A stretch of DNA of 64,000 nucleotides from an uncultured delta proteobacterium. Lineage in GTDB: Bacteria > Desulfobacterota > Desulfobacteria > Desulfobacterales > UBA2156. The stretch is taken from positions 672,001-736,000 of the forward strand of contig CAVTQK010000021.1 in assembly GCA_963736855.1 (NCBI GenBank). Reading direction: 5' to 3'. The translations under genes and the position numbers were made by a program. Below the pieces are notes generated by a model. It worked only from the letters and a program-made list of their open reading frames with translations. It did no database searches and was not told where the DNA came from. This document shows positions 31,774 through 62,139 of this stretch, piece by piece (the stretch's first letter is position 1; each line of letters begins with the position of its first letter).

Positions 31774-31808
31774 AAAAATCATTGAAAGTTTAAAACATCA
31801 ATTTTCCT

Positions 31809-38415: not shown

Positions 38416-38434
38416 AACTTCCCCGCTTTCTTAT

Positions 38435-38947: not shown

Positions 38948-38965
38948 GAATGGCCCCCCATAATG

Positions 38966-39880: not shown

Positions 39881-41173
39881 TTACTGCCCACGCTCATCGA
39901 AAACCCGCTTCGATTTCCTTTCGGATCTCGGGAGGCACCCGCAATCCATCAAATCAACTCTGCAGCTGACCATCAACTGCTTCTTGACTGCATCGCTGAT
40001 TTTTCTGGAAAGATCGGCCTTCAGGGCATCCGGGACACCTGCCTGGCATTCAACCTTTAGGGTCATATAATCCTTTCCGTCTTCCTCCCGTTTTAAAAGG
40101 ACCTGGTATTCACAGCTCACCCCGGAGATTTGTGACAGCATCTGATCGAATTGGCCGGGGTAGATATTCACACCCCTGAAGATGATCATATCGTCGGATC
40201 GACCCAGGATTCTTCCGTGCAAGGGGAGAACGTTCCCGCAGGAGCAAGGTCGGTCGATCCTTTGGACCAGGTCCCGGGTCCGGTATCGGATCAGAGGAGA
40301 GGCTTCCTTATATAATGTGGTGACGACCATTTCTCCGGTTTCTCCATCCGCCACCGGCTCAAGAGTATCCGGATCCAAAATCTCTAAAATGTAATAATCG
40401 GCCCAGTAGTGGATCCCCTCATGTTTGAAACAATCGAGTCCGGTCCCGGGCCCGTATAGCTCGGTCATGCCGGTGATATCAAACATGTCCTCTAATCCCA
40501 TGAGCTCCCGGATCCTTTTTCTCATGGCGTCCCCGCTTCGCTCGGATCCGAAAATCATTCTCTTCAGCGCGATCTTCCCCTTAAGTTTTCTGCGATCGAT
40601 TTCCTCGGCCATCAAGAGTCCCATGGAAGCGGTGCAACATATGACGGTGGATTGAAGATCTTCCAGGAATTGACACTGCATGTCGATGTTGCCGGGCCCT
40701 ATGGGAATGGCCAAGGCGCCGATCCGCTCGCATCCCAATTGAAAACCGACTCCGGCCGTCCAGATGCCGTAGCCCACTGCGATCTGAACCCGGTCCATGG
40801 GAGTGACCCCCGCCATCTCGTAGCACCGGGCAAAGATGTGCTTCCAATCGTCGATGTCTTTTTGTGTGTAGGCAAGGATCTTTTTCTTTCCCGTGGTTCC
40901 GGAAGAGGCATGGATGCGAACCACTCGTGACTCGGGGACCGAAAGGAGGGGAAACGGATATCCCTCTTTCAGATCATCTGCGGTAGTAAACGGCAAGCGC
41001 TTCAGGTCATCGAAGGATCGGATGAAATCAGGTCTAACACCCGCCTTATCCAGCCGCTTTTTATAAAATGGGGATCCGTTATAGGCATGGGCGACCGTCC
41101 ATCTCAGGCGTTCCAGTTGGTGTGAGTGCAGCGCTTCAAGATTTTCGAATTTCGGCATGAAAGTCTCGGTCAT
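39881..41173 (-). CDS. paaK: Phenylacetate-CoA ligase family aryl-acetate CoA ligase
   Basis: HASSGTTG, YGIWTAGVG, GMTE, IRYRTRD, GRSDDM..RGVN. Confidence 0.88.
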   Translation of the reverse strand: MTETFMPKFENLEALHSHQLERLRWTVAHAYNGSPFYKKRLDKAGVRPDFIRSFDDLKRLPFTTADDLKEGYPFPLLSVPESRVVRIHASSGTTGKKKILAYTQKDIDDWKHIFARCYEMAGVTPMDRVQIAVGYGIWTAGVGFQLGCERIGALAIPIGPGNIDMQCQFLEDLQSTVICCTASMGLLMAEEIDRRKLKGKIALKRMIFGSERSGDAMRKRIRELMGLEDMFDITGMTELYGPGTGLDCFKHEGIHYWADYYILEILDPDTLEPVADGETGEMVVTTLYKEASPLIRYRTRDLVQRIDRPCSCGNVLPLHGRILGRSDDMIIFRGVNIYPGQFDQMLSQISGVSCEYQVLLKREEDGKDYMTLKVECQAGVPDALKADLSRKISDAVKKQLMVSCRVDLMDCGCLPRSERKSKRVFDERGQ

Positions 41174-41276
41174 CCCTTCAATCTCCTCTTTCACTCAAAA
41201 TGTCCCGCGCTATTTTTCACCCGGCAGGAAGCGAATCCGGTAAGCCGTCCTTCCCGTTTTCGATCATTTGAGTTCT

Positions 41277-42998: not shown

Positions 42999-45129
42999 GG
43001 CATCCTCCCTTTCCCTTTTCCAGATCGATCCATATAAAACCGTAATCGTCCACAACAGCGGCAGCATCTTCTCCGAGGATGATGGTGGACTCCTTTTCTT
43101 CGATGATGGCCGGGCCCCCGAATGAAGCTCCTGGGAAAAGCCGCATCCGGTCGTAGACCGCAAAAGGAATGAATTGCCTCTTGTTGACGGAAAAGGCATT
43201 GCGCTCCCCCTTAATGCACGCCGTAAGATTCGTTTTTCGAATTTGCAGCTTCGGGATGTGAAAGGGGGGCTGGGGAATCTGTGCCCGAACTTTAAAGGTG
43301 ACAAACTCCACCGGCGTTTCCGGGTAGGTTCGGCCGTATAGCTTTCGATAGCTGTCATCGAAAAGCCTTCGAATCTCCTCCTTGGAAAAATGGAAAAAGG
43401 GCTTTCTTTCAATAACGAGATCCGTCTCGGACCCCTGGCCGATAAAACGCATGCTCAAGACGCGCTGAAAAAGAATTTCCTCCTGTTTCCCGGCCGATTG
43501 CAGAACCGCCTCGCCGTCTTTTTCCATTCCTGAAAAAAGCTGTTCCACCTCTTGGAAATCGGCGATATCCATTCTCACCCGGTGGCTGCGGGAAAGATCG
43601 AAGGCAATCGGTGCCGTAAAAAACCCGAGGGCCGACCCCACGCCGGCCAACGGCGGAACCAGAATACGGGGGGCCCCGATCTTTTTGGCCAAACCGTAGG
43701 CATGAACCGGCCCGGCGCCGCCAAAGGCCAGGATCAGGACCACCTGCGGGTTTCCCCCCTTTTCCGCGATGTGGGTCTTGGCCGCCGCCGCCATGGTTTC
43801 ATTGATCAGATCATGGATTCCGAAAGCCGCTTCCAACGCCGTCGTGCCGAGCGGAGACGCAATCCTCTCTGTAATGGCTGCTTCAGCCGATGCTTTGTCC
43901 AACGGCATGGTACCGCCCAGAAAATAATCGGGATCCAGGTAACCGAGGACCAGGTCAGCGTCCGTTACCGTCGGTTCCATGCCGCCCCTTTGATAGCAGA
44001 CCGGCCCGGGATCGGCCCCGGCACTATCCGGACCCACCTGGAGAAGCCCCATCCGGTTTATCCTGGCTATGCTGCCGCCTCCGGCTCCGATCTCCATCAG
44101 GTCCACAACGGGAACCTGAATGGGCAGGCCGCTCCCTTTTTTAAAACGCTGGACACGCCCCACCTCGAAAGTGGAAACCAGTCCGGCACGGCCCTTTTGA
44201 ATCAGGCAGGATTTGGCCGTGGTTCCCCCCATGTCAAAACAGAACATGTCTTCCACCTTGAACATCTTCCCGTAATGCTGGGAAGCGATTACCGCTGCCG
44301 TGGGGCCCGATTCGATGATCCGAACCGGAAAGGCCTGGGCCGTCTCCACGGAAGTGATCCCGCCGCTGGAAAGCATTATGTAAAGCTTTCCGCCAAACCC
44401 GACCTGTCGCATCCTTAGGATAAGTTTTTTCAAATACTTTTCGGTGATCGGTTTGACATAGGCATTGGTCACCGTGGTGGAGGTCCGCTCATATTCGCGG
44501 ATTTGAGGAAGGACTTCAAAGGACGTGGAAAGAAACAGATCCGGGGCCTTTTCTTTTACGATCTCCTTGATACGTATTTCGTGAATCGGATTTTCAAAAG
44601 AGTTGATGAGACAAACCGCCAGGGACTCCATGCCCATGTCCAGCAGTTCCTTGAGCACCGCTTCCGCTTGGGCATCTTCCAGGGGTTTGAGAATGCGTCC
44701 GTCGCAGGCAATCCGTTCCCGGATTTCTTTACGGAAGGACCGGGGCACCAGAGGTTCTGGGTATTCGGAGAAAATATCGTAGGCATCATACCGGAGTTCC
44801 CGGCCCAGTTCCAATACGTCCTTGAACCCTTCGGTGGTCATCAATCCGGTTTTAGCCCCTTTTCGCTCGATGATGGCATTGATGACCAGCGTGGTCCCAT
44901 GGATAATCTCTTCCAGGTTCGACATAAATCCGGGATGTTGATCCAGAAGTTGGGATACGCCGTATTCCACCGCTTCCGAAGGGTCCACCGGGGTGGTTAG
45001 GCATTTATAGACGTAAAACCGTCCGGTTTCGTCATCAACCAGCACAAAATCGGTGAAGGTTCCCCCGATATCGCAACCCAATCGATAACGGCCATGGGGC
45101 GATGCGCTTTCAGGATTCATAAGACGCAA
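42982..45129 (-). CDS. Hydantoinase A/oxoprolinase family ATP-binding subunit
   Basis: DIGGTFTD, HGTT, EYERTST, ESGP, DMGGTT, GAGGGS, SAGADPGP, FGGAGP. Confidence 0.93.
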   Translation of the reverse strand: MRLMNPESASPHGRYRLGCDIGGTFTDFVLVDDETGRFYVYKCLTTPVDPSEAVEYGVSQLLDQHPGFMSNLEEIIHGTTLVINAIIERKGAKTGLMTTEGFKDVLELGRELRYDAYDIFSEYPEPLVPRSFRKEIRERIACDGRILKPLEDAQAEAVLKELLDMGMESLAVCLINSFENPIHEIRIKEIVKEKAPDLFLSTSFEVLPQIREYERTSTTVTNAYVKPITEKYLKKLILRMRQVGFGGKLYIMLSSGGITSVETAQAFPVRIIESGPTAAVIASQHYGKMFKVEDMFCFDMGGTTAKSCLIQKGRAGLVSTFEVGRVQRFKKGSGLPIQVPVVDLMEIGAGGGSIARINRMGLLQVGPDSAGADPGPVCYQRGGMEPTVTDADLVLGYLDPDYFLGGTMPLDKASAEAAITERIASPLGTTALEAAFGIHDLINETMAAAAKTHIAEKGGNPQVVLILAFGGAGPVHAYGLAKKIGAPRILVPPLAGVGSALGFFTAPIAFDLSRSHRVRMDIADFQEVEQLFSGMEKDGEAVLQSAGKQEEILFQRVLSMRFIGQGSETDLVIERKPFFHFSKEEIRRLFDDSYRKLYGRTYPETPVEFVTFKVRAQIPQPPFHIPKLQIRKTNLTACIKGERNAFSVNKRQFIPFAVYDRMRLFPGASFGGPAIIEEKESTIILGEDAAAVVDDYGFIWIDLEKGKGGCHAETF

Positions 45130-45145: not shown

Positions 45146-46774
45146 TTAAAAGATGCTCGGTTCTTCCCATACCCCGAAGACATCCATGAATACACCCGTC
45201 ATTTCTCCCACCGTAGCGTATGCCTTGCAGCAGGCCACCAGACCGGGCATCACGTTCTTGCCGGTGGCCGCGCTTTTTTTCAAGGCTTTCAGGGTGCCGA
45301 CCACTTCCCGGTTGTTTCTTTCCTTTCGAAGAGCCTTGAGGCTTTTGATCTGTTTTTTCGCCCAGCCCTCATCGTATTCGTGGAGTTCCACTTCAGGATG
45401 CTCTCCCTCCGTGTACTTGTTGACGCCCACCTTGATGATTTCCCGGTTCTGGAGCCCTTTTTCGAACTCATACGCCTGTCGGCTCACTTCTCTCTGGATG
45501 GCTCCCGCAGCGACGGCCCGAACCATCCCGCCCATCTCCTGAATCCGTTGCATCTCTTCGAGGATCTTTGCTTCCATTTGTTTGGTGATGCTTTCGACGA
45601 AGTATGAACCGGCCAACGGGTCCACGGTGTCCCGCAGCCCCACCTCTTCCATGAGGATCTCCAGGGTCCTTAAAGAAAGCAGGGCCGCCCGGGGTGTGGG
45701 AATGGTAAAGGCTTCGTCAAAGGAGCATAGCGCCGTGGTCTGGGCTCCGCCGAGCGCGGCGGCCAGCGCATAGTAAGCGCTTCTGATAATGTTGTTCTCC
45801 GGCTGTTCCTTGGTCAGACCGCTCCCCCCGCCTCCGAAAAGGCCCCTCAGGAAAAGGTTTTTCTTGTTCCTGACGCCGTAATCCTCTGTCAGCATCCTGG
45901 CCCAGAGCTTGCGTGCCGCCCGGAACTTGGCCACCTGTTCCCAGAGATTTCCGAAGACGTTGAGATTGAAGGAAAACCTCCCCACGAATTCCTCGGGTGA
46001 AAGGCCCCGGGCCGCTACATTATCGATATAGGCTCTGGCGATTTCCAATGCACAGGCGATTTCCTGGGCCGGGGTCGCACCCGATTCCCGGATATGATAT
46101 CCGCAAACACTCACCGGGTTACAGCGAGGCAACTCCTTTACCGCATATTCGATGCAGTCCCCCACCAGCCGGACCGCCGGTTCCACGGGGAATATCCATG
46201 CCCCGCGACCGACCATTTCCTTCAAGATATCATTTTGAGGAGTGGCGCTGATAGCCTCCTTGGCATAACCGAATTTTTCTGCCGCTGCCTGATACATCGC
46301 CAGCATGACGGTGGCATTGGCGTTGATGGTCAACCCGGATCCGATACGATCAAAGGGGATGCCTTTGAAGGCAATCTCGAAGTCCCTGAGAGAATCCACG
46401 GCCATCCCGACCCGTCCGACTTCCCCTTCCGCCCTCGGGTCATCGGAATCGAGCCCCATCTGGGTGGGAAGGTCGAAGGCCACATTCAACCCGGTCTGAC
46501 CGTGGGAGATCATCCACCTGAACCGCTCGTTGGTCTCCTTGGGAGTACCAAAACCCGTATACTGCCTCGTAGTCCACGCCCGGCTCCGGTATCCGCCGGG
46601 ATGGATACCCCGCGTGAAAGGGAATTCCCCTGGATCTCCCAGGTCTTTTTGATAATCAAAGCCCACGGCATCGAGGTCTTGCGGTCCGTAGCATGTCTTG
46701 ACCCGGATGCCGCTCTGATAGATCACCTCTTTGATGGCGTCCTTCTCGTCCCGAACATATTTTGCCACACCCAT
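45146..46774 (-). CDS. B12-dependent acyl-CoA mutase, substrate-binding subunit (atypical active site)
   Basis: PGEFPFTRG, RQY, AFDLPTQMG, QNDILKE, GYHIRE, KFRAAR, DPLAGSY. Confidence 0.93.
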   Translation of the reverse strand: MGVAKYVRDEKDAIKEVIYQSGIRVKTCYGPQDLDAVGFDYQKDLGDPGEFPFTRGIHPGGYRSRAWTTRQYTGFGTPKETNERFRWMISHGQTGLNVAFDLPTQMGLDSDDPRAEGEVGRVGMAVDSLRDFEIAFKGIPFDRIGSGLTINANATVMLAMYQAAAEKFGYAKEAISATPQNDILKEMVGRGAWIFPVEPAVRLVGDCIEYAVKELPRCNPVSVCGYHIRESGATPAQEIACALEIARAYIDNVAARGLSPEEFVGRFSFNLNVFGNLWEQVAKFRAARKLWARMLTEDYGVRNKKNLFLRGLFGGGGSGLTKEQPENNIIRSAYYALAAALGGAQTTALCSFDEAFTIPTPRAALLSLRTLEILMEEVGLRDTVDPLAGSYFVESITKQMEAKILEEMQRIQEMGGMVRAVAAGAIQREVSRQAYEFEKGLQNREIIKVGVNKYTEGEHPEVELHEYDEGWAKKQIKSLKALRKERNNREVVGTLKALKKSAATGKNVMPGLVACCKAYATVGEMTGVFMDVFGVWEEPSIF

Positions 46775-46777
46775 TTT

Positions 46778-47182
46778 CTATCCCCCATTGACCAAAGACT
46801 GAATGGAGCTGGTGATTTCGGAAAACGGCGTTCCTCCGGGAAAAACAGCGGCCACACCGATCTCTTTCAACGGATCGATATCCTTTTTGGGGATCACCCC
46901 GCCGACGACCACTTTGATGTCTTCCATTTCTTCCTGTTTCAAACGGGAAATCAGCCTCCGGCTGATGGACAGGTGCGCGCCGGTCATGATACTCAACCCG
47001 ATCACATCCACCGATTCTTGAATCGCCGTGTGAACGATCTGATCGATGCTCTGATGAAGACCGGTATAAGTGACCTCCATGCCTGCATCCCGCAGCGCCA
47101 GGGCGACGATTTTAGCCCCCCGGTCATGCCCGTCCAGGTCGGGCTTGGCGATGAGCACCCGTATCCTTCTTCTTGCTTCCAT
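46778..47182 (-). CDS. Cobalamin-binding subunit of acyl-CoA mutase
   Basis: DGHDRG (DxHxxG), GLS..GAH, GGVIP. ATG 47182 with GAGGT RBS. Confidence 0.93.
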   Translation of the reverse strand: MEARRRIRVLIAKPDLDGHDRGAKIVALALRDAGMEVTYTGLHQSIDQIVHTAIQESVDVIGLSIMTGAHLSISRRLISRLKQEEMEDIKVVVGGVIPKKDIDPLKEIGVAAVFPGGTPFSEITSSIQSLVNGG

Positions 47183-47260
47183 TACTGATACCTCATTTTG
47201 ATTGATTCTCCCCAACGGCTTCATTTCTTCCGACGTTCCAGTCCGCTCGTCTTATGCCGA

Positions 47261-47971
47261 TCACGCCAGAGTATGATCCTCATCAAAAGCTTCAACGACG
47301 GCGGTACAACCGCGCACAATGTGATCTTTCACCAGCCGTTCCACTCCTTCGGCATCCCGTTGCCGGATATGTTCGAGCATCCGTTTGTGGTCGTCATTGC
47401 TCACCGAAGCCAATATTTCATTTCGCAAAATGATCCGCCGGAAGCGAAAAATCTGGTCACGCAGCTCGTTGATCATCTTGATGAGCCTGGGGCTGCGGCT
47501 TAGAGCATAGAGCAGATCATGGAACTCCGTGTTGATCCGGGTCAGAGCGTCCAGATCTTTTCGAGCCAGAAAACGTTCATATTCGGCAATCTTTTGCTGC
47601 AGCGGGATCAGTTCTTTTTCCTTATGTTGGATCGCGGAAAGCCTCGCAGCGTAGCTTTCAAGGACCCCCCGGATGCCGAAGGTCTCTTCGATGTCTTCCC
47701 GGCTTAAGCCTAAAACCTTGAAGCCGCCCCGGGGGAGCCTTTTCAGAAGCCCTTCCTGTTCCAGTTTGTGGATCGCCTCTCTAACCGGTGTTCGGCTGAT
47801 TCCCATGGCCTCGGCAATCCGGCTTTCCACCATCCGGCTTCCCGGCCCGATGTTCCCCCTCACGACGGCCTGTCTCAGGTTTTCGAAAACACGATCCCCT
47901 AACGATTTCCTTTCGTAAAAACGGTGCAGGGGCTTCAGGTCAAACGCTTCGTCAATATCAATGCGATCCAT
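47261..47971 (-). CDS. GntR-family (FCD) transcriptional regulator
   Basis: ESRIAEAMGISRTPVREA wHTH, NTEFH and DH..I..H FCD motifs. Confidence 0.92.
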   Translation of the reverse strand: MDRIDIDEAFDLKPLHRFYERKSLGDRVFENLRQAVVRGNIGPGSRMVESRIAEAMGISRTPVREAIHKLEQEGLLKRLPRGGFKVLGLSREDIEETFGIRGVLESYAARLSAIQHKEKELIPLQQKIAEYERFLARKDLDALTRINTEFHDLLYALSRSPRLIKMINELRDQIFRFRRIILRNEILASVSNDDHKRMLEHIRQRDAEGVERLVKDHIVRGCTAVVEAFDEDHTLA

Positions 47972-47982
47972 TTGCCATCCTT

Positions 47983-49116
47983 TTACAGACCGGCCCATCG
48001 GGCGATATTGGTCTGGAGGACTTCATGGGTACCCCCACCGTTTAACAGGAAACGACTGTCGCGGTAGTAACGTTGCACAGGATATTCCATGGAATACCCA
48101 TACGCCCCAAAGATACGGGTCGCTTCGTCAGCCGCCTTACAGGCCGCTTCGGTGGCGAAATATTTGGCCATGGTGGCCTCTTTGAGGCATGGGATTTGGT
48201 TGTCGATCATCTTGGTCGCCTGGTAAGTGAGCAATCGGGCAGCTTCCAGTTCGGTGGCCATGATGGCGACCTTGGACTGGATGAGCTGATACTGGGCGAT
48301 GGGACGGCCGAAGGCGACCCGCTCTTTGGCATAGCGGATGGAATCGGTCATGGAGGCTCTCAGCAAGCCAACGGCCAAAGCTGCCGTCATGGCTCGGATT
48401 TCAGAAAGGATGGACATGAGGTTGTTCAGTCCCTCCCCTTCCTGGCCCAGCATGAATTCCGGTGGAATGTGCACATTGGTGAAGGCTACCTCGGACATCT
48501 GGGTCGTCCGGGTTCCCAGGAGTTCAAAGGGAGCGCTCACCGAAACCCCCGGCATCTCCCGGGGTATAAAAAAGAAATTGAGTCCCCTCAGCTTCTTAGC
48601 CGGATCGGTCTGGCACAGGACCGTATAAAAATCAGCGATGGGGCCATTGGTCACCCAGGTCTTCATCCCATTGACCACAAACCCGTCCTTGGTCCGCTGG
48701 GCCAGAGTGGTCACTGCGCCCAGGTCCGAACCGGCTTCAGGCTCGGTCAGACAAAAGCACGGGATCTTTTCGCCCCTCATGGCAGGGAGGAAATACTTTT
48801 CCCGCATTTCTTCCGTTCCGTAATGAAAAAGAAAGTTCGTACCCATCAGGCACTGCATGGCGGTGATGGCGGCAAAGCTCATGAGACCTACGGCCAGCTC
48901 CTCACAGATAATGCAATACAAAGTGGTGTTCCCGCCGCTGCCTCCCTTGTCCCTGGGATACCGAATTCCAAAGACCCCCATTTTCGCCACTTTCTGGAAC
49001 AGTTCTGCGGGAAATTCCCCTGAAGCATCCACCTGTTGCGCCTTGGGAATCACTTCCTTCTCCACAAAACGAGCCATGCTTTCCCGGATAAGATTTTCAG
49101 GGTTGGACCGAATCAT
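47983..49116 (-). CDS. Acyl-CoA dehydrogenase
   Basis: FCLTEPEAGSD, NGMKTWVTNG, RVAFGRPI..YQ, FGAYGY, YYRD, GGT.E. Confidence 0.93.
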   Translation of the reverse strand: MIRSNPENLIRESMARFVEKEVIPKAQQVDASGEFPAELFQKVAKMGVFGIRYPRDKGGSGGNTTLYCIICEELAVGLMSFAAITAMQCLMGTNFLFHYGTEEMREKYFLPAMRGEKIPCFCLTEPEAGSDLGAVTTLAQRTKDGFVVNGMKTWVTNGPIADFYTVLCQTDPAKKLRGLNFFFIPREMPGVSVSAPFELLGTRTTQMSEVAFTNVHIPPEFMLGQEGEGLNNLMSILSEIRAMTAALAVGLLRASMTDSIRYAKERVAFGRPIAQYQLIQSKVAIMATELEAARLLTYQATKMIDNQIPCLKEATMAKYFATEAACKAADEATRIFGAYGYSMEYPVQRYYRDSRFLLNGGGTHEVLQTNIARWAGL

Positions 49117-49174: not shown

Positions 49175-50362
49175 TCATTTGTTTGTCGATTTGAGCTGCC
49201 GGATCATTTCCGGAACGATTTCATGAAGGTCGCCCACGATCCCCCAGTCGGCCACCTGGAAGATGGGAGCACGGGGATCCTTATTGACGGCGATGATGTA
49301 CCGGGAATTCATCATGCCGGCCCGATGCTGGATGGCTCCGGAAACCCCGCAGGCAACGTAAATCTCCGGGCGCACCGACTTGCCTGTCTGCCCCACCTGA
49401 TTTTCCTGGGAGATCCAGCCTTCCTCCACAGCCACCCGGGTCCCGGCCACTTCACCTCCCATGAGATCCGCCAGTTCTCTGAGGGCATTGAATCCCTCGG
49501 CATCCCCCACGCCCCGACCTCCGGCCACGATGACCTTGGCTTCCGTAATATCGGTTCCCTTTTTCCGCTCCTGAATCGTTTCCAGGACTTTGACCCCGAT
49601 TCGGGATTCGGCAATCCGCACGCGATGACGGACGACGACTCCCTTCTTATCCGGTGTCGAAATCGCCGCCATGACGCCGGGCCGGACCGTGGCCATCTGG
49701 GGGCGGGAATACCGGTTGGCGATGGTCGCCATGACATTGCCGCCGAAAGCAGGCCGGGTCTGCAGCAGGATTTTTTCCTTGGAATCAATGGCCAACTCCG
49801 TACAATCAGCCGTGAGGCCGCAACCTACACGCCGGGAGATCCGGGGCGCGAGATCCCGCCCGAGATGAGAAGCCCCCAACAGCAGAATATTCGGTTTATA
49901 GGCCTTTACCAGCTCTTCCACCACATCGGCGTAAGCGGTGGTCCGGTATTGCGTCAATGCCTTGTGCTGCACAAGATAGACCTTGTCCGTTCCATATCGG
50001 ATCAGGGTTTGCGCCAGGTTCGAGACCTGGTACCCGGCTAAAATGGCGCAGACTTCCTGTCCCAGCTCCTGTCCCAGTTCCTGGGCTTTTCCTAAGAGTT
50101 CGAGGGAAACACGGTTCAATTGACCGTTGCGCTGCTCTGCAAAGACCCATACCCCCTGATGGTCCGAGAAATCCGGAATCGTTTTGGGTTCGGCATCCGA
50201 ACGCAAAGCCTTGGCCCTGCAGACTTCCAGGCAGGCGCCGCATGTCGTGCATCGATCCAGAATATGGGCTTTGCCGTCCTTGATTTCGATGGCACCGTAT
50301 GGACAGGCCTTGAGGCACAGTCTGCATCCGTCACAAAGATCCTTTTCCACCCAGACGACCAT
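49175..50362 (-). CDS. etfA: ETF alpha subunit with N-terminal 2x[4Fe-4S] ferredoxin domain
   Basis: [12 protein letters not shown] and [37 protein letters not shown]. Confidence 0.93.
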
Positions 50363-50378
50363 ATTGTTCTTTTTCCTT

Positions 50379-51206
50379 TCACAATTCGCATGTGGACGCG
50401 AAAGCCTTGCAGGCGGTGGCCCCTTCGCTTTCTTTCAGTTTTCGGATCAGCTCCCTGACAACGGTCTCCTTGCTCCCTTCCAGGATCTTTCCTTCCCGCT
50501 TGAACTTGGGGGCAAAGGTACGGATCACATGGGTCAGAGACCCTTCCAATCCCACTTGCTGAGTCTTGACGCCGATGTCCGCCGCGTTCCAGATCTGAAT
50601 GGGCGCTTTTTCACGGCACGCCCAGAGCAATCGTTCCACCCGGGGGAATCGCGGGTTATTCATTTCCCCGATGACGGTGATCAGTGCGGGAATCCGACAT
50701 TGGAGACGTTCATAGCCGTCTTCCAACCTCCGTTTGACCGTGATCTGTTTTGGGCTCACCGCTTCGATGTCGAACACATAGGTGGCCTGAGGAATCCCAA
50801 GCCAGTCGGCCACCTGGGGTCCGATCTGGGCCGTGTCCCCGTCAATGGCCTGCCGGCCGCTGAAGACGAGGTCAAAATGGCCGACCTTCCTGATCGCCAT
50901 GGACAGGGTGAAAGAAGTGGCCCAGGTGTCGGCTCCGGAAAAAGCCCGGTCCGTAAGCAGAATCCCTGCATCGGCCCCCATGCCGAAGGCTTCCGATATC
51001 ACATCGATGGCCTGCACGGGCCCCATGGAAACAACCGTCACTTTTCCGCCGAACCGTTCCTTGAGGACCAGGGCCGCTTCCAAGGCATGGGTATCATCCG
51101 GGTTCATGATGCTTTTCAGCCCTTCACGAATGAGATTTCCGGTCTTGGGGTCCAACTTGACTTCCGTAGTATCCGGCACCTGCTTGATCAATACGATGCT
51201 GTCCAT
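50379..51206 (-). CDS. etfB: ETF beta subunit
   Basis: IKQVPD, NPDD, MGP, DRAFSGADTWATS, GRQAIDGDTAQIGP. Confidence 0.93.
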   Translation of the reverse strand: MDSIVLIKQVPDTTEVKLDPKTGNLIREGLKSIMNPDDTHALEAALVLKERFGGKVTVVSMGPVQAIDVISEAFGMGADAGILLTDRAFSGADTWATSFTLSMAIRKVGHFDLVFSGRQAIDGDTAQIGPQVADWLGIPQATYVFDIEAVSPKQITVKRRLEDGYERLQCRIPALITVIGEMNNPRFPRVERLLWACREKAPIQIWNAADIGVKTQQVGLEGSLTHVIRTFAPKFKREGKILEGSKETVVRELIRKLKESEGATACKAFASTCEL

Positions 51207-51230: not shown

Positions 51231-52424
51231 TTAGATAATCCCTCTTGTTTTCAGCCCTGCGATGGCCTCTTGAGAATATCCCAGGGCCTCGGAAAGGATC
51301 TTTTGGTTGTGTTCCCCGAAGCGGGGAGGAAAAGACAATTGCCGATCGTTTTGCATCATAAATTCCGTCAGGTAAGGGGACGGTGCGAGGGTGACGCGCA
51401 TATCCGTGACAGGATCCTGAGTATACAGGAGACGGCGTTGCACCAGGGGATCTTCGCAGACCTCTTTGATGCTTTGTATCTTGCTGATGGGTACTGTTAT
51501 GGCCTTGAAAAGATCGATCAACGCCTCGGAGGTCTGCTGGACGGTGACGGCCTCGATTTCTCTGTTGAGGCGCACCACTTCCTTTATTCGGCCGGCATTC
51601 TTCTCATACTCCGGCCGGTCCAGAACTTTGAAAATCTTCTGGGAGACCATGGATTTCCATTGGCGATCGTTTCCCACGGCCAGATAAATGTACCCGTTCT
51701 GTGTCCGATACACGGAAACCGGGGAAAAAAACTCGTGGGTGTTCCCTCTTCGGGCGATCCTTCTCTTTAAGATATCCCTCATGGTGATAGGAACGATGAG
51801 CCAGGAAACCGATGACTCAAACATGGACTGATGGATGCAGGAACCTTGACCGGTTTTTTCCCGGATTAAAAGCGCCTTCATCAGCCGGCCGTAGGAGTGT
51901 TCACTCGTCCCCATATCCGGCAGGGGGATCCCCGTCACCTGGGGGGGGCCGTCGGCTTCCCCGGTCATCTCCATAAGTCCGGATCGGGCCTGGAGTATGG
52001 GATCATAAGCCGCTTCGTTGCTTTCCGGACCGAAGCCGGTAACTCCCAGCCAGATGATATCCTTTTTAATGGATTTCAAAGTGTCGTAGTCGATGCCCAG
52101 CTTGGTGTAGCTCTTCGGGAGCTGATTGGTGGCAAAGATATCGACATTCAGTTTTTCGATGAGAGAATGAAAAATGGCCCGACCTTCCGCTTCACCGAGG
52201 TTCAGGGTCATAGATTCTTTGCCGGCATTGATGCAAAGAAAATAGGCATTCATCCGCTCTTCCCCCAGGATGTTCTCCCCCACCCATCGGTTCGGATCTC
52301 CGTAGACCGGGTGTTCGAGCCTGATGACCCGAATGCCGTCTTGGACCAGACGAAATGTCAGATACGGCAATACAGTGGCCTGCTCCAGAGACAGCATGGT
52401 CAGGTTCTTAAAAAGATTCATCAT
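51231..52424 (-). CDS. Family III (CaiB/BaiF) CoA transferase
   Basis: GDPNR, NAGKES, TGFG, AYDPILQARSGLM, PLPD (catalytic Asp region), PRFGEHN. Confidence 0.88.
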   Translation of the reverse strand: MMNLFKNLTMLSLEQATVLPYLTFRLVQDGIRVIRLEHPVYGDPNRWVGENILGEERMNAYFLCINAGKESMTLNLGEAEGRAIFHSLIEKLNVDIFATNQLPKSYTKLGIDYDTLKSIKKDIIWLGVTGFGPESNEAAYDPILQARSGLMEMTGEADGPPQVTGIPLPDMGTSEHSYGRLMKALLIREKTGQGSCIHQSMFESSVSWLIVPITMRDILKRRIARRGNTHEFFSPVSVYRTQNGYIYLAVGNDRQWKSMVSQKIFKVLDRPEYEKNAGRIKEVVRLNREIEAVTVQQTSEALIDLFKAITVPISKIQSIKEVCEDPLVQRRLLYTQDPVTDMRVTLAPSPYLTEFMMQNDRQLSFPPRFGEHNQKILSEALGYSQEAIAGLKTRGII

Positions 52425-52673
52425 ATTCTCTCCTTTCCGAAGACAAATAGCCTGGGCCGTGCATTTTTCAGGATGTAGTCAAGTTCAGGTTCGGCCAGAC
52501 GAAAATTGACCAGTATAAAAAATTCCCCAATCCAGGCGGAAACCATGTAAATTCACAGAAACTCCGGATAACTGATAAACTCTTCTTGAAATCGGATGGC
52601 TGTTTTCTGAGGATGCAATTCACTCCAGCGTTGCACCCACCAGGCGATGTTCATGGACTTGATCATCGGTTAT

Positions 52674-52688
52674 TGTATACTGTATACA
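52674..52688. promoter_or_regulatory. Candidate GntR operator upstream of the catabolic operon
   Basis: TGTATAC-T-GTATACA is a perfect inverted repeat. Minus-strand TTGACT at 52703-52698 could be the -35 box. Confidence 0.55.
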
Positions 52689-53878: not shown

Positions 53879-53953
53879 AATGCACCGACTGCTTCCCAAA
53901 GTCTGTGCCGGTATACTTAAACATCCCGTCCATCCCATATTCAGGAGACGCCC

Positions 53954-54424: not shown

Positions 54425-54586
54425 CCAAAAGCTTCAGACCACGCCGTTTCATTCCATTGCAACATTTCTCCTTGACAAGGATTCTTTTCACTGGATACAG
54501 ATGTGATTGTACCCGTGCCGTTTGGATTTTTCAGAAAAACCTGACGCCCATCATGTCTGACCTGCATACAAAAAAAGGAAGGTGCG

Positions 54587-56611
54587 ATGCACTTCGACAC
54601 TCGGTTCTACCCTACCGCCTTTAATCCTTTGTTGATCACACCGTCCCGACCGCTTCCGAAAAAAATCGCCGTCGTCGGCGCAGGGACCATCGGTCCCGAC
54701 ATCGGCTATTATCTGAAAAGCGCCTTGCCTGAAAGCATCTTATACTTGGTGGACGTCGTAGAGGCACCCCTGAAAGCCGCTGAAAAGCGACTCGCCGGCT
54801 ATGCGCAAAAAGCCGTCGAAAAGAAAAAGATGACCCCTGAACAGGCCCAGGCCGTCTGCGCCAACATCGTCTATACCCTCGATTACGATCAGATCACAGA
54901 GTGCGAATTGATCATCGAAGCGGCCACCGAAGCCATCCCTCTAAAACAGCGCATCTTCGCCGCCATCGAGGAACGCGTCAAAGATACGGCCATCATCACC
55001 TCCAATACCAGTTCCATACCGGCGGACCGCCTCTTTTTACACATGAAGCACCCCGAAAGGGCGACGGTCACCCATTTCTTCGCACCGGCCTGGCACAGCC
55101 TGCCGGTGGAAGTGATCCGCTGGGAACGGGTCAGCCCGGAGGTTTTGGATTATCTCTTCTGGTTTTTCGCAAAAACCGGAAAATCCCCTATCCTCACGGC
55201 CGACGCCATTTGTTTCGTGCTGGACCGCATCTTCGACAACTGGTGCAATGAAGCGGCCTATCTCTTAAACACAGCATCCGCCAGCCAGATCGACAAAGTG
55301 GCCGAGGAATTTGTGTTCGCCGGACCCTTTTTTGTGCTGAACATGGCCAACGGAAACCCCATCATCATCGAAACCAACACCCTCCAAATGGAAGAAGGAG
55401 CCCACTATCTGCCGGCCCCGATCCTCACCTCAGTCGACCGCTGGAAGACTCACCGGCCGGGAACAGAGGTTCGGATGTCTGAAACCGTCCTTCAACAGGT
55501 CCGGGACCGGCTGCTGGGGATCCTATTTTCCCAATCCTTTGATATCATCGATCGTCGAATCGGTACCATGGAAGATGTCAACTTCGGATGTCAGGTGGCC
55601 CTCGGATTCCGCAAGGGACCCCTGGATATCATGAAGGACCTGGGAGAGGAAACGGTGAACCGGGTTATGGAACGTTTCCGCACCGAAAGACCGGGGTTCC
55701 CCCAGCCTAAAAAACCTGTTTCGGCCTATCAGGATTTTCGCCGCTACATCCTCATCGATGAACAGAACGGCGTGCAAATCCTGACCTTGCGCCGTCCCCA
55801 GGCCCTCAACGCCCTCAACGATGAGATATTGGATGAGCTGCTGAGCGTCCTCAGAATGGGTTCCGAGAATCCTTCCGTGGAGGGATTCGTCCTCACCGGG
55901 TACGGCACGGGGGCGTTTTCAGCCGGCGCCGAAATCGGTAAATTTCCACAGATGCTCGGCGACAAAACCGCTTCCATGCAATATGCCAAAGACTGCGCCA
56001 AGGTTCAGCGGTTTCTCGATGGAATGGAAAAGCCCGTGGTGGCGGCGCTTAACGGCCTGGCCTTGGGCGGCGGCCTGGAACTTGCCATCCGCTGCCACGG
56101 CATCGTGGCCTTGAAAAACGCCAGGCTTCAGTTTCCCGAAATCACCCTCGGGATCCTCCCGGGCATCGGCGGCTGCATCGTTCCTTATCGAAAATGGCCT
56201 CAGGGAGCAACGGCTTTCAACGACATGATTCTTTCGGGACGGGCGCTCTCTGCATCCGATGCCGCCGGAATCGGCGTCGTAGACCATATGGCGGATACCT
56301 ATCCGGAAATGATCCGAACCGCCGTTCAGATGGCAAGGACCCTTAAAGGCGCCATTCGTCGAATCCCGGATGCCCCTGTCGATATGCCGGAGATCCGGAT
56401 TCCGGAGCCGCCCGCGGCGGGAAATCTCCATTTGAGCAAAGAGGCGGTAGCCATTGCCGCCAAAACCATCCGGGAAGGGGCTGCCTGTTCATCGCTTGCT
56501 CAGGCACTGGAAAAAGGGTATGAAGGATTTGGGGAGATCGCCTGCACCCAAGCGGCCAAGGAAGGAATTTCCGCCTTTTTGGAAAAAAGAAAACCGTCGT
56601 TTCAGCGTTGA
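54587..56611 (+). CDS. 3-hydroxyacyl-CoA dehydrogenase / enoyl-CoA hydratase fusion (dehydrogenase N-terminal)
   Basis: VVGAGTIG, EAATE, SNTSS, HFF, followed by RPQALNAL, FSAGA, ALGGGLELA and PEITLGILPG. Confidence 0.92.
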   Translation: MHFDTRFYPTAFNPLLITPSRPLPKKIAVVGAGTIGPDIGYYLKSALPESILYLVDVVEAPLKAAEKRLAGYAQKAVEKKKMTPEQAQAVCANIVYTLDYDQITECELIIEAATEAIPLKQRIFAAIEERVKDTAIITSNTSSIPADRLFLHMKHPERATVTHFFAPAWHSLPVEVIRWERVSPEVLDYLFWFFAKTGKSPILTADAICFVLDRIFDNWCNEAAYLLNTASASQIDKVAEEFVFAGPFFVLNMANGNPIIIETNTLQMEEGAHYLPAPILTSVDRWKTHRPGTEVRMSETVLQQVRDRLLGILFSQSFDIIDRRIGTMEDVNFGCQVALGFRKGPLDIMKDLGEETVNRVMERFRTERPGFPQPKKPVSAYQDFRRYILIDEQNGVQILTLRRPQALNALNDEILDELLSVLRMGSENPSVEGFVLTGYGTGAFSAGAEIGKFPQMLGDKTASMQYAKDCAKVQRFLDGMEKPVVAALNGLALGGGLELAIRCHGIVALKNARLQFPEITLGILPGIGGCIVPYRKWPQGATAFNDMILSGRALSASDAAGIGVVDHMADTYPEMIRTAVQMARTLKGAIRRIPDAPVDMPEIRIPEPPAAGNLHLSKEAVAIAAKTIREGAACSSLAQALEKGYEGFGEIACTQAAKEGISAFLEKRKPSFQR

Positions 56612-56753
56612 CAAAGAAAAGACCTGAAAGCACCCATTCTCTGTCGGCGAGCCGGCAGTGACGCGTTTATTTTCAATCCGTCGGGGGAAGGGTCGGTAGA
56701 ACAAGCAAACATCGCCGACCCAATCAAGCACCATCGAATCAAAAGGAGGATTT

Positions 56754-58130
56754 ATGCAGGTCAAGAAGATTTTTTTACCCGAGTCTGAGTTGCCGCGTCA
56801 ATGGTACAATATCGCCGCAGACATGCCTACACCCTTAGAGCCTCCGCTTCACCCGGGAACCGGGCAGCCCGTGGGACCCGACGACCTGGCTCCCATCTTC
56901 CCCATGCCCCTCATCGAGCAGGAAGTCAGCCGGCAGCGGTTCATCGACATACCCGAACCTGTCTTGGAAAAATACCTCATCTGGAGGCCGACTCCCATGT
57001 ATCGGGCCTTCAACCTGGAAAAACACCTGGGAACACCTGCAAAAATCTATTTCAAAAATGAAGGGGTCAGCCCGGCAGGAAGCCACAAGCCCAACACCGC
57101 ACTGGCTCAGGCTTATTACAATAAGATCAGCGGCACCAAGAAGATCACAACGGAAACCGGCGCCGGCCAGTGGGGAAGCGCCCTGGCCATGTGCTGCTGC
57201 CTCTTCGGACTGGAATGCAAAGTCTACATGGTGAAAGTGAGCTTCCAGCAGAAACCCTATCGCCGGCTCATGATGGAAACATGGGGCGCCAAGTGCATCG
57301 CCAGCCCCAGCACCGAAACCAATGCGGGACGAAAAATTCTTGAAAAAAATCCGGATTCCCCCGGTAGTTTGGGGATCGCCATCAGCGAGGCAGTGGAAGC
57401 GGCTGTCTTGGATAAAGACACCAAATACTCCCTGGGCAGCGTGTTGAACCATGTGTTACTGCATCAAACCGTCGTCGGTCAGGAAGCCCAAAAACAAATG
57501 GCTCTGTTCGGGGATTACCCGGATGTCGTCATCGCCTGCGCCGGCGGCGGAAGCAATTTCGCCGGTTTGTCCTTTCCGTTCATCCGGGATAAAATCCACG
57601 GCAAGAAGGTGGAAATCCTTGCGGTGGAACCGGCCTCTTGTCCCACCATGACCCGGGGGCCCTTTGCCTATGACTTCGGCGACACCGTGCAGATGACACC
57701 GTTGTTGCCCATGCACACTTTAGGCCACGGCTTTATCCCTGAGCCGATCCACGCCGGCGGCCTACGATATCACGGAATGGCACCGCTGGTCAGTCAGTTA
57801 ATCCTGGACAAGCTGATCACACCGATCGCTGTTCCCCAACTGGAAACCTTCGAAGCAGGCCTGACTTTTGCCCGGACGGAAGGTTTCATCAGCGCCCCGG
57901 AAACGAATCATGCGATAGCGGTGCTCATCCGCGAAGCCAAGAAGGCCAAGGAAGAAGGAAAACAAAAGGTACTCCTGCTCAACTGGAGCGGTCACGGATT
58001 GGTGGACATGGCTGCCTACGAGGCCTATCTCACCGGCAGGCTTAAAAATTATGAGCTCCCGCAGGAAGAGATCAATCGCGCCCTGGCCGAAATCGCGCCC
58101 TTACCGAAGCCCAGACAGTACAAGAAATGA
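56754..58130 (+). CDS. trpB2: Stand-alone tryptophan synthase beta, TrpB2 type
   Basis: WYNI, GSHKPN (PLP Lys), [30 protein letters not shown]. 458 aa, with no trpA nearby. Confidence 0.92.
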
Positions 58131-58194
58131 TAATCTCCTTTCGATCACGCCTCTCGGAGATGGTACTCCTCCGGGAGGCAAACGAAAGCCCGAT

Positions 58195-58479
58195 ATGACC
58201 CAAAAAATCACACCCCCTGAGGACGACTTCAAGATCCGCTGCCGAAAACTCGGTCATCAAATATTCTTTTCATACTGCCGAAGTGAAAACCGGGGACTCC
58301 CCTGTCCCGAAACGATAGACTGCTGGCACATCCATTTCCAAGTTCAAAATTACCTGGAACAAGAACTCACTCCAGAGGAATGGAATAAGGCATTTGCCTC
58401 CCGCTCGAAGCCAAAAGTGATGACCCTATTAGACCTGATCGAACAAGCCAGGGCTTCAAAGGAAGAAGGATCCAGATGA
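58195..58479 (+). CDS. Small Cys/His-containing hypothetical protein
   Basis: CRKLGH..YC..LPC...CW pattern. Its stop overlaps the iorA start (ATGA). Confidence 0.65.
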   Translation: MTQKITPPEDDFKIRCRKLGHQIFFSYCRSENRGLPCPETIDCWHIHFQVQNYLEQELTPEEWNKAFASRSKPKVMTLLDLIEQARASKEEGSR

Positions 58480-60332
58480 AAGAGGCGTTTTTGCTCGGAA
58501 ACGGTGCCATCGCCCTGGGACTCCTGGAAGGCGGGTGCCAAGTGGTCACCTCTTACCCCGGAACCCCCAGTTCGGAAATATTACCCGAGATCGTCCACCT
58601 GATTAATACCGAAAATCTGAAGACCTATGCGGAATGGTCCACCAATGAAAAGGTGGCCTTCGACAATGCCTATGCCGCGGCCATTTCCGGGAAACGGGCC
58701 GCCTGCTGTATGAAGCAGGTGGGTTTGAACGTCGCGGCGGACTCACTGATGAGCGCCGCCTACCTGGGCACCACTGGAGCGCTGGTCATCATCTCCTGCG
58801 ACGATCCCGGTCCGCATTCTTCCCAGACCGAGCAGGATACGCGGATGATGGCACGGCTTGCCAAGGTCCCGGTGCTGGATCCCTCCACTCCTAAAGAAGC
58901 CCGGGAGATGGCAGCACTTGCCCTGGACCTCTCCGAAGAGTTCCGGATCCCGGTGATTTTAAGGCCCGGCATCCGGGTCTGTCATGCCAGGCAGAACTTT
59001 CAGTGGGAACCTCTTTCCATAAGAAACAAATCCGCAGTTTTTGAAAAGAACCCCGCACGGTGGGCGGCAACCCCCCGGTTTCGATACCTTCTCCATCAGG
59101 AGCTGAACCAAAAACTCATTCAAATATCCAAAAAATTTGAACGATTAAAAACTATTAACAAACATAACCTCATTAAAAACAGGAAATATCCTCTGGGGAT
59201 CGTGGCGGGGGGTGTCCCCTATTCCATTGTTCGGGACCTTCTTACCGAAAATCAGCGGGAGGATATCCCCGTCCTTAAACTGGGTGCACCCTATCCTTTC
59301 CCGGAAAAGCCGGCGAAACAATTCTTGAGAGCCTGTAAAAAAGTGCTGGTCCTGGAAGAAACCGATACTCTCATCGAATACTTCCTCAGGGATCGAAAAA
59401 AGGTCCTGGGGAGGCTTTCCGGCCATGTTCCCACGGAAGGAGAACTGGTTCCCCAGGCCATTTCGCGGGTGATCCAACGAGTCCTAACGGATCTGGGCAT
59501 CGATCCGATGGAGGTCTCAGAAAACACCGAGGCTCAGGAGCTGGTTCGGAGTCTCAACCTTCCGATCCGAAAACCCACACTTTGCCCGGGTTGCCCGCAT
59601 CGGGCATCCTTTTTCGCCATCCGCAAAGCACAATCCAAGGCGATCTTCACTTCCGACATCGGCTGTTACACCCTTGGCATGAACCTCGGCGCCGTCGATA
59701 CCTGCCTGGACATGGGAGCCGGAATCACCATGGCCTCCGGATTCTTTCATGCTTTTGCCCAGGACGGGGTCGAACAACCCATTGTGGCCACCATGGGGGA
59801 TTCCACCTTTTTCCATTCAGGTACCGCCGGCCTTTTAAACGCAGTCTACAACGGGTCCCGGTTCATCCTGGTGCTGCTGGATAACGAAACGACGGCCATG
59901 ACCGGGATGCAACCCACCCCGGCTCTGGGCATCCGTGCCGACGGAAGCCAAGGCAAATCGATTCCCCTGGAAAGGGTCGTAGCGGGTTGCGGCGTGGACT
60001 TCATCGAAGTGGTGGATCCCTATGACATCAAGGCCATGACCGCCCTCTTGAAGAAGGCTAAAGCGTACGTCACGAGTCCGGATGGAGGGATCGCCGTTAT
60101 CATCGCCAGACACCCCTGCGTCATTGCCTATCGGGACCGGGCGATCCCGAAAAGAATACCCGTCACCGTCACCGACGACTGCGACGAGTGCGGGTTCTGC
60201 CATGAACGTTTCGAATGCCCGGCCTTATTCAAAGACCCGGAAATCGGACATACCGCTGTCAACAAATCCATCTGCGCCGAATGTGGGGTCTGTATACAGG
60301 TCTGCCCCAAGGGCGCCATTGTGGGCGTGTGA
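58476..60332 (+). CDS. iorA: Indolepyruvate:ferredoxin oxidoreductase alpha subunit
   Basis: LLGNGAIA, YPGTPSSE, NEKVA, MKQVGLNVA, SSQTEQD, CPGCPH, DIGCY, GDSTF, TAMTG, C-terminal 2x[4Fe-4S]. Confidence 0.93.
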   Translation: MKEAFLLGNGAIALGLLEGGCQVVTSYPGTPSSEILPEIVHLINTENLKTYAEWSTNEKVAFDNAYAAAISGKRAACCMKQVGLNVAADSLMSAAYLGTTGALVIISCDDPGPHSSQTEQDTRMMARLAKVPVLDPSTPKEAREMAALALDLSEEFRIPVILRPGIRVCHARQNFQWEPLSIRNKSAVFEKNPARWAATPRFRYLLHQELNQKLIQISKKFERLKTINKHNLIKNRKYPLGIVAGGVPYSIVRDLLTENQREDIPVLKLGAPYPFPEKPAKQFLRACKKVLVLEETDTLIEYFLRDRKKVLGRLSGHVPTEGELVPQAISRVIQRVLTDLGIDPMEVSENTEAQELVRSLNLPIRKPTLCPGCPHRASFFAIRKAQSKAIFTSDIGCYTLGMNLGAVDTCLDMGAGITMASGFFHAFAQDGVEQPIVATMGDSTFFHSGTAGLLNAVYNGSRFILVLLDNETTAMTGMQPTPALGIRADGSQGKSIPLERVVAGCGVDFIEVVDPYDIKAMTALLKKAKAYVTSPDGGIAVIIARHPCVIAYRDRAIPKRIPVTVTDDCDECGFCHERFECPALFKDPEIGHTAVNKSICAECGVCIQVCPKGAIVGV

Positions 60333-60347
60333 TACCAGGAAGAGAAA

Positions 60348-60929
60348 ATGGAGACCGTCAACTTCATACTGAGCGGGCTGGGCGGACAGGGAATCCTTTT
60401 TTTGACCAAGGTGCTGGCTCAATGCGCCCTGGATCGGGGAGTCCCGGTTTTAGGGGCGGAAACCCACGGAATGGCCCAGCGCGGCGGGTCGGTAGTATCA
60501 CATCTAAAAATCGGTAACGTGGAAAGCAGCCTGGTGCGTGAGGGGACCGCTCATTTTCTGTTATCCCTCGAGGAAAACGAAGCCTACCGAGGCATCCCCT
60601 TTTTAGCCAAACATGGAAAGCTTTACGTCAACGCTTCCGGTGATTCCTTTCCGAAAGAGACCGTAAGGCTTTTCTTTGAAAAGATGAATATTGCCTTCCA
60701 CGCGTTGCCTGTGGGAAAAATCGCCTTCGAACTGGGTGCGCCGCTCGCCGCCAACTCCGGACTTTTAGGGTTGTTTGCCGCCTTTGATGGCGTCCCCTTC
60801 GCACGGGAAGAAATCCGGGAAAACATTGAACGATTCAGCCCGAAACCGTTCCGAAGTCTCAACGTGAAGGTCTTCGACTCCTGCCGGCAAAAAGCGATCT
60901 CGTCGGGGCTGACGAATGACCGGCTATAA
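60348..60929 (+). CDS. iorB: Indolepyruvate:ferredoxin oxidoreductase beta subunit
   Basis: GLGGQG, ETHGMAQRGGSV. Follows iorA. Confidence 0.92.
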   Translation: METVNFILSGLGGQGILFLTKVLAQCALDRGVPVLGAETHGMAQRGGSVVSHLKIGNVESSLVREGTAHFLLSLEENEAYRGIPFLAKHGKLYVNASGDSFPKETVRLFFEKMNIAFHALPVGKIAFELGAPLAANSGLLGLFAAFDGVPFAREEIRENIERFSPKPFRSLNVKVFDSCRQKAISSGLTNDRL

Positions 60930-62116: not shown

Positions 62117-62139
62117 TATAATCCGGCAGGGAGGATCCC

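Follow-up and report, generated by a model that had tools for sequence, protein, structure and literature searches.

A conserved gene module of tryptophan synthase beta-2 and an indolepyruvate oxidoreductase-type enzyme, tied to indoleacetate-type genes in Desulfobacterales, as a possible route of anaerobic indole activation

The DNA analysed here, hereafter the window, is a stretch of 64,000 nucleotides from an uncultured delta proteobacterium of the order Desulfobacterales (assembly GCA_963736855.1, contig CAVTQK010000021.1, positions 672,001 to 736,000). The source genome, G000, is 100% complete and consists of 25 contigs, and the window lies on contig C21. It carries a five-gene module that includes the genes of a stand-alone tryptophan synthase beta subunit, TrpB2, and of an enzyme of the indolepyruvate:ferredoxin oxidoreductase (IOR) type, together with an operon resembling the iaa cluster for anaerobic degradation of indoleacetate. 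A first-pass annotation, made from the sequence alone, had read the module as a route that activates indole through tryptophan (Trp), indolepyruvate and indoleacetyl-coenzyme A (indoleacetyl-CoA). Here, we show that the module is real, conserved and probably co-regulated as an entry to the iaa pathway, and we weigh the reading of indole activation against other explanations.

The five genes of the module all lie on the + strand. The first (54587..56611) encodes a fused 3-hydroxyacyl-CoA dehydrogenase / enoyl-CoA hydratase (HADH/ECH; Pfam 3HCDH_N and ECH_1), which is likely the enzyme of side-chain β-oxidation in the iaa pathway and which we take to be IaaP. It is followed by trpB2 (56754..58130), by a Cys-rich open reading frame (ORF) of 94 amino acids (58195..58479), the start of which is likely at 58195 and not at 58051, by iorA for the alpha subunit (58476..60332) and by iorB for the beta subunit (60348..60929). 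Successive genes are separated by 142, 64, -4 and 15 bp, in agreement with the short or overlapping junctions described in the first-pass annotation. The gene order is also backed by another sequencing run, in which one contig extends from a kinase-like gene through a Usp gene and HADH into trpB2, and another from trpB2 through the Cys-rich ORF to iorA. As had been stated, no trpA lies beside the module; the sole trpA match of the genome is on contig C8, adjoining trpB1.

TrpB2 scores 646.8 bits with TIGR01415 (cut-off 518.85) and is above the cut-off of NF009057, while it scores 158 bits with the TrpB1 model TIGR00263, the cut-off of which is 392. The closest entries in the Protein Data Bank are 6HUL, 4QYS and 6HTE, and in these structures, in the family score above cut-off and in the lack of an adjacent trpA it resembles the known TrpB2 proteins. 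In the motif GGL-R-YHG, an arginine occupies the position of an aspartate of TrpB1 in all 83 TrpB2 rows, aligned with 4QYS and 6HUL; the genome's own TrpB1 has GLDY at this position. The arginine presumably has a role in the use of phosphoserine. TrpB2 was reportedly described as a phosphoserine-dependent, indole-scavenging synthase by Busch in 2014 and by Hettwer and Sterner in 2002. According to work cited in PMC11917138, O-phospho-L-serine is the enzyme's substrate and indole is bound tightly. Its described role is biosynthesis or salvage, whereas here its gene is tied to catabolic genes; in a survey of 2007, trpB2 genes outside trp operons had no conserved neighbourhood (PMC1854888).

IorA scores 639.9 bits with TIGR03336, 11 under the cut-off of 650.9, and IorB (PF01558) scores 112 bits with TIGR03334, under the cut-off of 205.8; IOR models still rank first for both subunits. 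The two-subunit architecture (TIGR03336/TIGR03334) is the same as in the IOR of amino-acid-oxidising anaerobes and of Methanococcus maripaludis, from which the window's enzyme differs by its score just under the cut-off and by belonging to a clade found in iaa genomes only. Conversion of indolepyruvate to indoleacetyl-CoA has been shown for a gut IOR homologue (bioRxiv 10.64898/2026.01.29.702580). G000 has three IOR-type loci. All 84 tblastn matches of the Cys-rich protein show a C-x-C-x-CW pattern; the protein has no match in Pfam or NCBIfam, and its look-alikes in the Atlas are hypothetical Thermodesulfobacteriota proteins.

The iaa-type operon runs from 52424 down to 36088 on the - strand, divergent from the module. 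It had been described as the module's neighbour, which holds for its presence, but a kinase-like gene (weak Pkinase match) and a Usp gene intervene (52889-54424). This pair stands between two copies of an operator, described below, in G000, G005 and G002, is not at the same place in G001, G003 and G004, and is apparently an insertion. The operon begins with a family III CoA-transferase, IaaL-like (51231..52424, PF02515), before which a remnant of an acyl-CoA ligase gene is found (52430..52666, - strand; tblastn 54% over 111 of 535 amino acids). This ligase, of the long-chain family, is whole in G001, G002, G004, G006 and G010. Further genes, assigned by family matches, encode EtfB and EtfA, the latter with an N-terminal ferredoxin (49175..51206), an acyl-CoA dehydrogenase (47983..49116), a GntR/FCD regulator, IaaR-like (47261..47998), a split B12-dependent mutase, IaaGH-like (45146..47224), the A and B subunits of a hydantoinase-like enzyme (41277..45129, the true start of B being near 43000), a PaaK-family CoA ligase, IaaB-like (39881..41194), and the M, S and L subunits of a xanthine-oxidase-family molybdoenzyme (36088..39856). 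We take the hydantoinase-like pair to be IaaCE and the molybdoenzyme subunits to be IaaIJK. The acyl-CoA dehydrogenase has the sequence RFLLNGGGT near its C-terminus, with GGG in place of the YEG found in most family members. Ligase, CoA-transferase III, split mutase, hydantoinase pair, molybdoenzyme and GntR regulator thus occur together in one operon; a hydantoinase and a molybdoenzyme are said to have been described as members of the iaa cluster by Ebenau-Jehle in 2012.

The iaa cluster has been described for anaerobic indoleacetate degradation in Aromatoleum aromaticum and predicted in Desulfatiglans anilini, strain NaphS2 and Ferroglobus placidus; in this account IaaB, IaaL, IaaGH and IaaF act on indoleacetyl-derived CoA esters, the GGG motif is a signature of IaaF, and electron transfer flavoprotein (ETF) genes are found in the iaa operons of strict anaerobes (PMC8360864). 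The window operon shares with that cluster the CoA ligase, the CoA-transferase, the split mutase, the dehydrogenase with the GGG motif, the regulator and the ETF of strict anaerobes. It differs in that it contains no thiolase, presumably IaaA; a 68% match to a thiolase of a related iaa island lies 650 kb away at C21:63810, and 11 of 80 related loci include a thiolase. Entry into the pathway as described in PMC8360864 is by uptake and the ligase IaaB, and no trpB2, IOR, serA or serC is named in that description.

An unguided dyad search over upstream regions found a palindrome, TGTATAC-N-GTATACA, upstream of iaaL, HADH, trpB2, serA, serC and iorA in iaa genomes. In the window, a perfect copy, TGTATAC-T-GTATACA, is located upstream of the iaa operon (52674..52688) and is a predicted operator; it is the sole perfect site in G000 and the sole site with at most three mismatches in the window. 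Its position, behind a TTGAC box and across the likely -10 element, is as for a repressor site, and the GntR protein is the candidate binder. Among upstream regions, the motif precedes the CoA-transferase in 46-47 of 69, HADH in 20 of 28, iorA in 8 of 49, serA in 4 of 33 and serC in 3 of 10. For trpB2 the counts are 16 of 69 regions from iaa genomes, with the motif immediately before the gene, and 0 of 20 controls; in congener G003 it lies 218 bp before trpB2, and in congeners it is found about 19 bp upstream of the acyl-CoA ligase gene. A copy with one mismatch is located at C21:811928, upstream of a PF14196 gene. Scans for promoters and terminators were uninformative (9 found against 5.4 expected, and 22 against 13.4).

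Conservation of the link was assessed in two surveys that partly cover the same genomes; related genomes in all counts are kin and not independent samples. For the first, 201 genomes, each at least 90% complete, were sampled evenly from the order, with matches to IaaC in 36, to TrpB2 in 176 and to IorA (E<=1e-150) in 82. In a test set beforehand, counted by hand among genomes that have trpB2, this gene was at most 5 kb from iorA in 17 of 35 iaaC-positive and in 4 of 141 iaaC-negative genomes, so that the co-location with iaa clusters suggested by the first-pass annotation was borne out. The 17 leave out G012, G126 and G130, iaa genomes with an adjacent iorA below threshold. Among the four iaaC-negative linked genomes, the iaa operon of G254 is interrupted by a contig end, G246 (90% complete) has the motif, HADH and serA with no iaaC or iaaG found, and G181 and G242 are true exceptions. 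IorA matches of at least 60% identity occur in 12 of the 201 genomes, every one with iaa genes.

The second survey consisted of 40 relatives and 50 of 80 loci, the latter being the best of at least 533; longer contigs were preferred and four already-seen loci left out. After omission of genomes without trpB2 and of G090, which has a partial gene, 63 iaa-positive genomes were compared with 20 iaa-negative ones for genes within 5 kb either side of trpB2; many contigs were short, so that a missed neighbour is not an absent one. The counts were 28 against 0 for iorA, 13 against 0 for the ligase, 26 against 0 for serA, 10 against 0 for serC, 30 against 0 for either of these two, 27 against 0 for the motif and 48 against 0 for any marker. 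An HADH orthologue (at least 60%) was equally near in 23 of 63 and 0 of 20. The Cys-rich protein was rejected as a pathway-specific part: the pair of trpB2 and its gene is generic in the order, being found in 52 of the 63 iaa-positive and 15 of the 20 iaa-negative genomes. Outside the phylum, 150 genomes yielded four new IaaC-like matches (45-48%), none in iaa clusters, and three of these four genomes have no TrpB2 match.

A linked trpB2 and the dedicated IorA clade are both missing from eight iaa genomes (G068-G072, G074, G077 and G083), and this joint lack indicates that the two come as a module. In a tree of TrpB2 (83 rows, quick IQ-TREE, no bootstrap, alignments under 400 amino acids left out), linked copies fall into two clades, one with G000 and one nested among housekeeping copies, besides those of G055 and G012. 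The two clades are parted by a 100%-supported branch, and the starred branches force at least five label changes. Two IorA clades, found with FastTree only and having long branches, pair with the TrpB2 clades in different combinations. From these trees, the module appears to have been assembled repeatedly, by recruitment of two TrpB2 clades and two IorA clades. These data bear on the explanation that the neighbourhood arose by chance and was inherited in one lineage, for which one can point out that several surveyed genomes are close kin and that 15 of 63 iaa genomes are without the link. The differing gene orders, the two TrpB2 and two IorA clades, the shared motif and the 0 of 20 controls speak against it, and the survey counts and the TrpB2 tree largely refute it. 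The link between the module and the iaa cluster is not due to chance, and we consider inheritance of a fortuitous arrangement extremely improbable.

The genes serA and serC serve to make the co-substrate of TrpB2 and have no role in the breakdown of imported Trp or indoleacetate. SerA passes TIGR01327 and SerC passes TIGR01364, and one or the other flanks trpB2 in 30 of the 63 iaa genomes, while in G000 both are unlinked to it. Tandem copies of trpB2 occur in five genomes; serA immediately precedes the second copy in all five, and serC immediately follows it in four. In seven genomes, a V4R/XylR_N-LuxR regulator precedes serA-trpB2(-serC) (e.g. L150:8931-10175, L144:5145-6962 and L145:11914-14085); of three such regulators scanned, XylR_N is above cut-off in two and V4R in two, and these proteins are candidate indole sensors. 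Recruitment of serA and serC is the strongest sign of a high flux through TrpB2 while the iaa genes are on.

This recruitment is left unexplained if the module serves only the catabolism of Trp, with IOR funnelling imported Trp into the iaa route and a housekeeping TrpB2, the gene of which had moved in, mopping up stray or toxic indole without sustaining growth. Such a function would be in line with IOR-type enzymes making indoleacetyl-CoA in amino-acid-oxidising anaerobes (bioRxiv 10.64898/2026.01.29.702580), with the near-universal presence of trpB2 in the order, and with the 8 of 80 loci in which iorAB lies directly before iaaL, away from trpB2. However, a marker adjoins trpB2 in 16 of 18 genomes that carry the dedicated IorA clade, and no tryptophanase that would release indole was found in G000, where the best PF01212 match, of 386 amino acids, is probably a threonine aldolase. 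Moreover, a cell that makes Trp from phosphoserine and breaks it down at the same time would run a futile cycle, unless its substrate were indole. We regard this explanation as unlikely.

In the route that we propose instead, TrpB2 would make Trp from free indole and phosphoserine, and a predicted, as yet unlocated aminotransferase would convert Trp to indolepyruvate. IorAB, presumably working in the oxidative direction, would yield indoleacetyl-CoA, from which the iaa enzymes would open the ring to give 2-aminobenzoyl-CoA and acetyl-CoA, through the reactions of IaaB, IaaL, IaaGH and IaaF and the other steps of the iaa pathway. The C3 carrier could be recycled from acetyl-CoA through pyruvate and 3-phosphoglycerate to phosphoserine, and the amino group would cycle between Trp and SerC; SerC itself, with Trp as amino donor, is possibly the missing aminotransferase. 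We infer a net catabolic flux by which indole would support growth. With assumed values for turnover and uptake, the flux was estimated to take 1-25% of cell protein, which says no more than that the route is not absurd. TrpB2 probably also serves in biosynthesis; with this second role included, we give the route about an even chance of being correct. The wider claim is that sulfate-reducer relatives mineralise indole by alkylation of C3 by TrpB2 with recycled phosphoserine, CoA ester formation by IOR without a ligase, and ring opening by iaa enzymes, in a system assembled at least twice; we hold it a little more tentatively, at slightly short of even.

A precedent is found in bifidobacteria, in which exogenous indole is converted to Trp and then to indole-3-lactate and serine synthesis is needed (PMC11085991, PMC12672768). 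Common to both is that a synthase beta subunit puts outside indole into Trp, which is then catabolised. The bifidobacterial route differs by using TrpB with serine, by excreting its product with the ring intact, and by having no IOR or iaa genes in those accounts.

Several observations weigh against indole activation by this module, and part of them fit another explanation, salvage of Trp. The cell would then spare its own synthesis of Trp whenever indolic compounds are at hand: TrpB2 would capture indole, and IOR would work reductively, from indoleacetyl-CoA and CO2 through indolepyruvate to Trp, with a small anabolic flux. Such use of IOR has a parallel in Methanococcus maripaludis, in which aryl acids feed aromatic amino acid synthesis via IOR (cited in PMC4162585). 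Five congeners, 94-98% complete, were checked for tryptophan synthase: no TrpB1 was found in 5/5, trpA was found in 2/5 (G002 and G004) as the last gene of the trp operon, and TrpB2, the sole synthase beta found in all five, is in these congeners a biosynthetic enzyme and not a dedicated catabolic copy. In G022, G029, G057 and G144, trpD is located in the vicinity of the module. In addition, 15 of the 63 iaa genomes, which are not independent, lack any marker near trpB2. The island copies of serA and serC are mostly the sole canonical ones, moved and not duplicated (serC 2/2, serA 4/5). G181 and G242, which represent one genus, keep trpB2-iorA-iorB with a ligase resembling the IaaB-like one of the window (58% identity), with no iaaC found in either and no iaaG in G181, and thus lack the ring-cleavage genes searched for, which fits salvage. 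In G181 (L227:8825-18159), trpB2, iorA, iorB, the ligase and TRAP genes form one run without the motif; a similar run is present in G242 and probably in G137, and this type of run is possibly a pure salvage operon.

The arrangement in G000 itself is also a weaker example than those of many relatives. Its serA and serC, one canonical copy each, are on contig C15 without the motif; an aldehyde:ferredoxin oxidoreductase-family gene lies directly after serC there (L214:8662-11632). The ligase gene beside the CoA-transferase is deleted to the remnant mentioned above. Before the HADH-trpB2-iorAB unit, a TTGACA box and an operator copy are found (54472..54499, + strand), and the operator (54485-54499) has four mismatches. 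The site is perfect in G002, G003 and G004, while G005 has the same four mismatches and, like G000, keeps the TTGACA box. This erosion suggests that in the G000 lineage the trpB2-iorAB unit has likely lost its palindrome-based control and been freed from the iaa regulator, and loss of the operator in G000 and G005 would suit a housekeeping need, in line with salvage.

The tryptophan genes of G000 point in a different direction from those of its congeners. The first-pass annotation had called for a check on a separate trpAB and held that TrpB2 as the only synthase, regulated by Trp starvation, would refute indole activation. G000 has trpA-trpB1 on C8, while no TrpB1 was found in the congeners, so that TrpB2 is the sole beta subunit found in the congeners and not in the source genome. 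On C9 lies trpEGDCF, four genes by Pfam with trpG inferred from a gap. Apart from it, trpB1-trpA (L001:230-2241) lies behind a GntR/UTRA regulator in a patch of 56-61% GC and was likely gained laterally, since no searched congener has trpB1. The assembly shows trpB1 with frameshifts, but three single bases at the break points are missing from near-identical contigs of runs X1 and X3. The frameshifts are therefore likely assembly errors and the gene intact, although another strain could be the source of these contigs, which have about 95% similarity. With trpB1 intact, TrpB2 would be spare in G000.

Salvage also leaves features of the module unaccounted for. The demand for Trp hardly needs serA and serC under a catabolic motif, nor tandem trpB2 copies; the module has a promoter region in common with the β-oxidation gene in 23 of 63 genomes; and the dedicated IorA clade is found in iaa genomes only. 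We judge salvage improbable, to the same degree as a function in Trp catabolism only.

The reading of the first-pass annotation holds up in part. The adjacency is conserved and tied to iaa genes, and serA and serC, the shared motif and the repeated recruitment lend it further support; it is weakened by TrpB2 being the sole beta subunit found in congeners, by the eroded motif in G000 and by the lack of an aminotransferase in the module. The annotation had noted that the window has no aromatic aminotransferase, and none is conserved in the module across related loci. A class I aminotransferase adjoins the module in eight loci, in opposite orientation. G000 has 16 matches to PF00155 (class I/II aminotransferase), and a 52% candidate, without the motif, is located at C20:105054-106232.

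A further point against indole activation via Trp is that the intermediates reviewed for anaerobic indole degradation, also for the sulfate reducer Desulfobacterium indolicum, are oxindole, isatin and anthranilate (PMC6221969). In a route of this kind, a molybdoenzyme would hydroxylate indole to oxindole and isatin, the IOR-type enzyme would decarboxylate 2-aminophenylglyoxylate to 2-aminobenzoyl-CoA, and TrpB2 would be incidental. The substrate and likely the end product, activated anthranilate, are the same in both; the oxindole route proceeds by direct C2 hydroxylation of free indole, whereas the proposed route adds a side chain first. A second molybdoenzyme does occur in many islands, but G000 lacks a close orthologue of it, with best matches at 36-38%, it is often accompanied by a class III aminotransferase, which suggests an amine or aldehyde feeder, and serA, serC and trpB2 are left unexplained. 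This route is very unlikely as an account of the module. The second molybdoenzyme forms a recurrent unit of iaa islands with a saccharopine-dehydrogenase-like gene and the class III aminotransferase (L018:1764-8169, L143, L171, L189, L244), preceded by the motif in G003, and this unit possibly feeds tryptamine or an aldehyde into indoleacetate.

Other genes in and around the window were also noted. Downstream of the module, at 60962-64000, an FmdB-type zinc ribbon gene is followed by genes of the DUF3347 and TolC types, along with an open ORF; the segment resembles a metal efflux unit and is not conserved along with the module. A 240-amino-acid AAA-type ATPase gene often adjoins trpB2 and the Cys-rich ORF in one TrpB2 clade (L018:8902-9639 and relatives), and its G000 orthologue (60%) lies at C21:667907, just outside the window. 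The row at 29848-35238, composed of a RecQ-like helicase, an SNF2 helicase with a weak DISARM DrmD match under the cut-off, and a YqhG-like gene, is possibly a defence or repair island.

Searches of an open-access library, judged from listings, gave no publication joining TrpB2 to IOR or iaa genes. A comparison of the iaa clusters of sulfate reducers was reportedly made by Schuhle in 2016 and could mention trpB2 or IOR neighbours.

The mechanism of anaerobic indole degradation was termed a black box in a 2018 review (PMC6221969), and the locus described here points to candidate genes, intermediates and a candidate operator for this process. The G000 copy illustrates how such a module may become uncoupled from its regulator. 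If the proposed route is correct, a biosynthetic enzyme would catalyse the activating reaction in a catabolic pathway, which would be a second role for TrpB2, and a new activation chemistry would be added for an unsubstituted heteroaromatic ring. The combination of trpB2, serA/serC and iorAB would then be a marker of indole removal in sediments, aquifers and wastewater.

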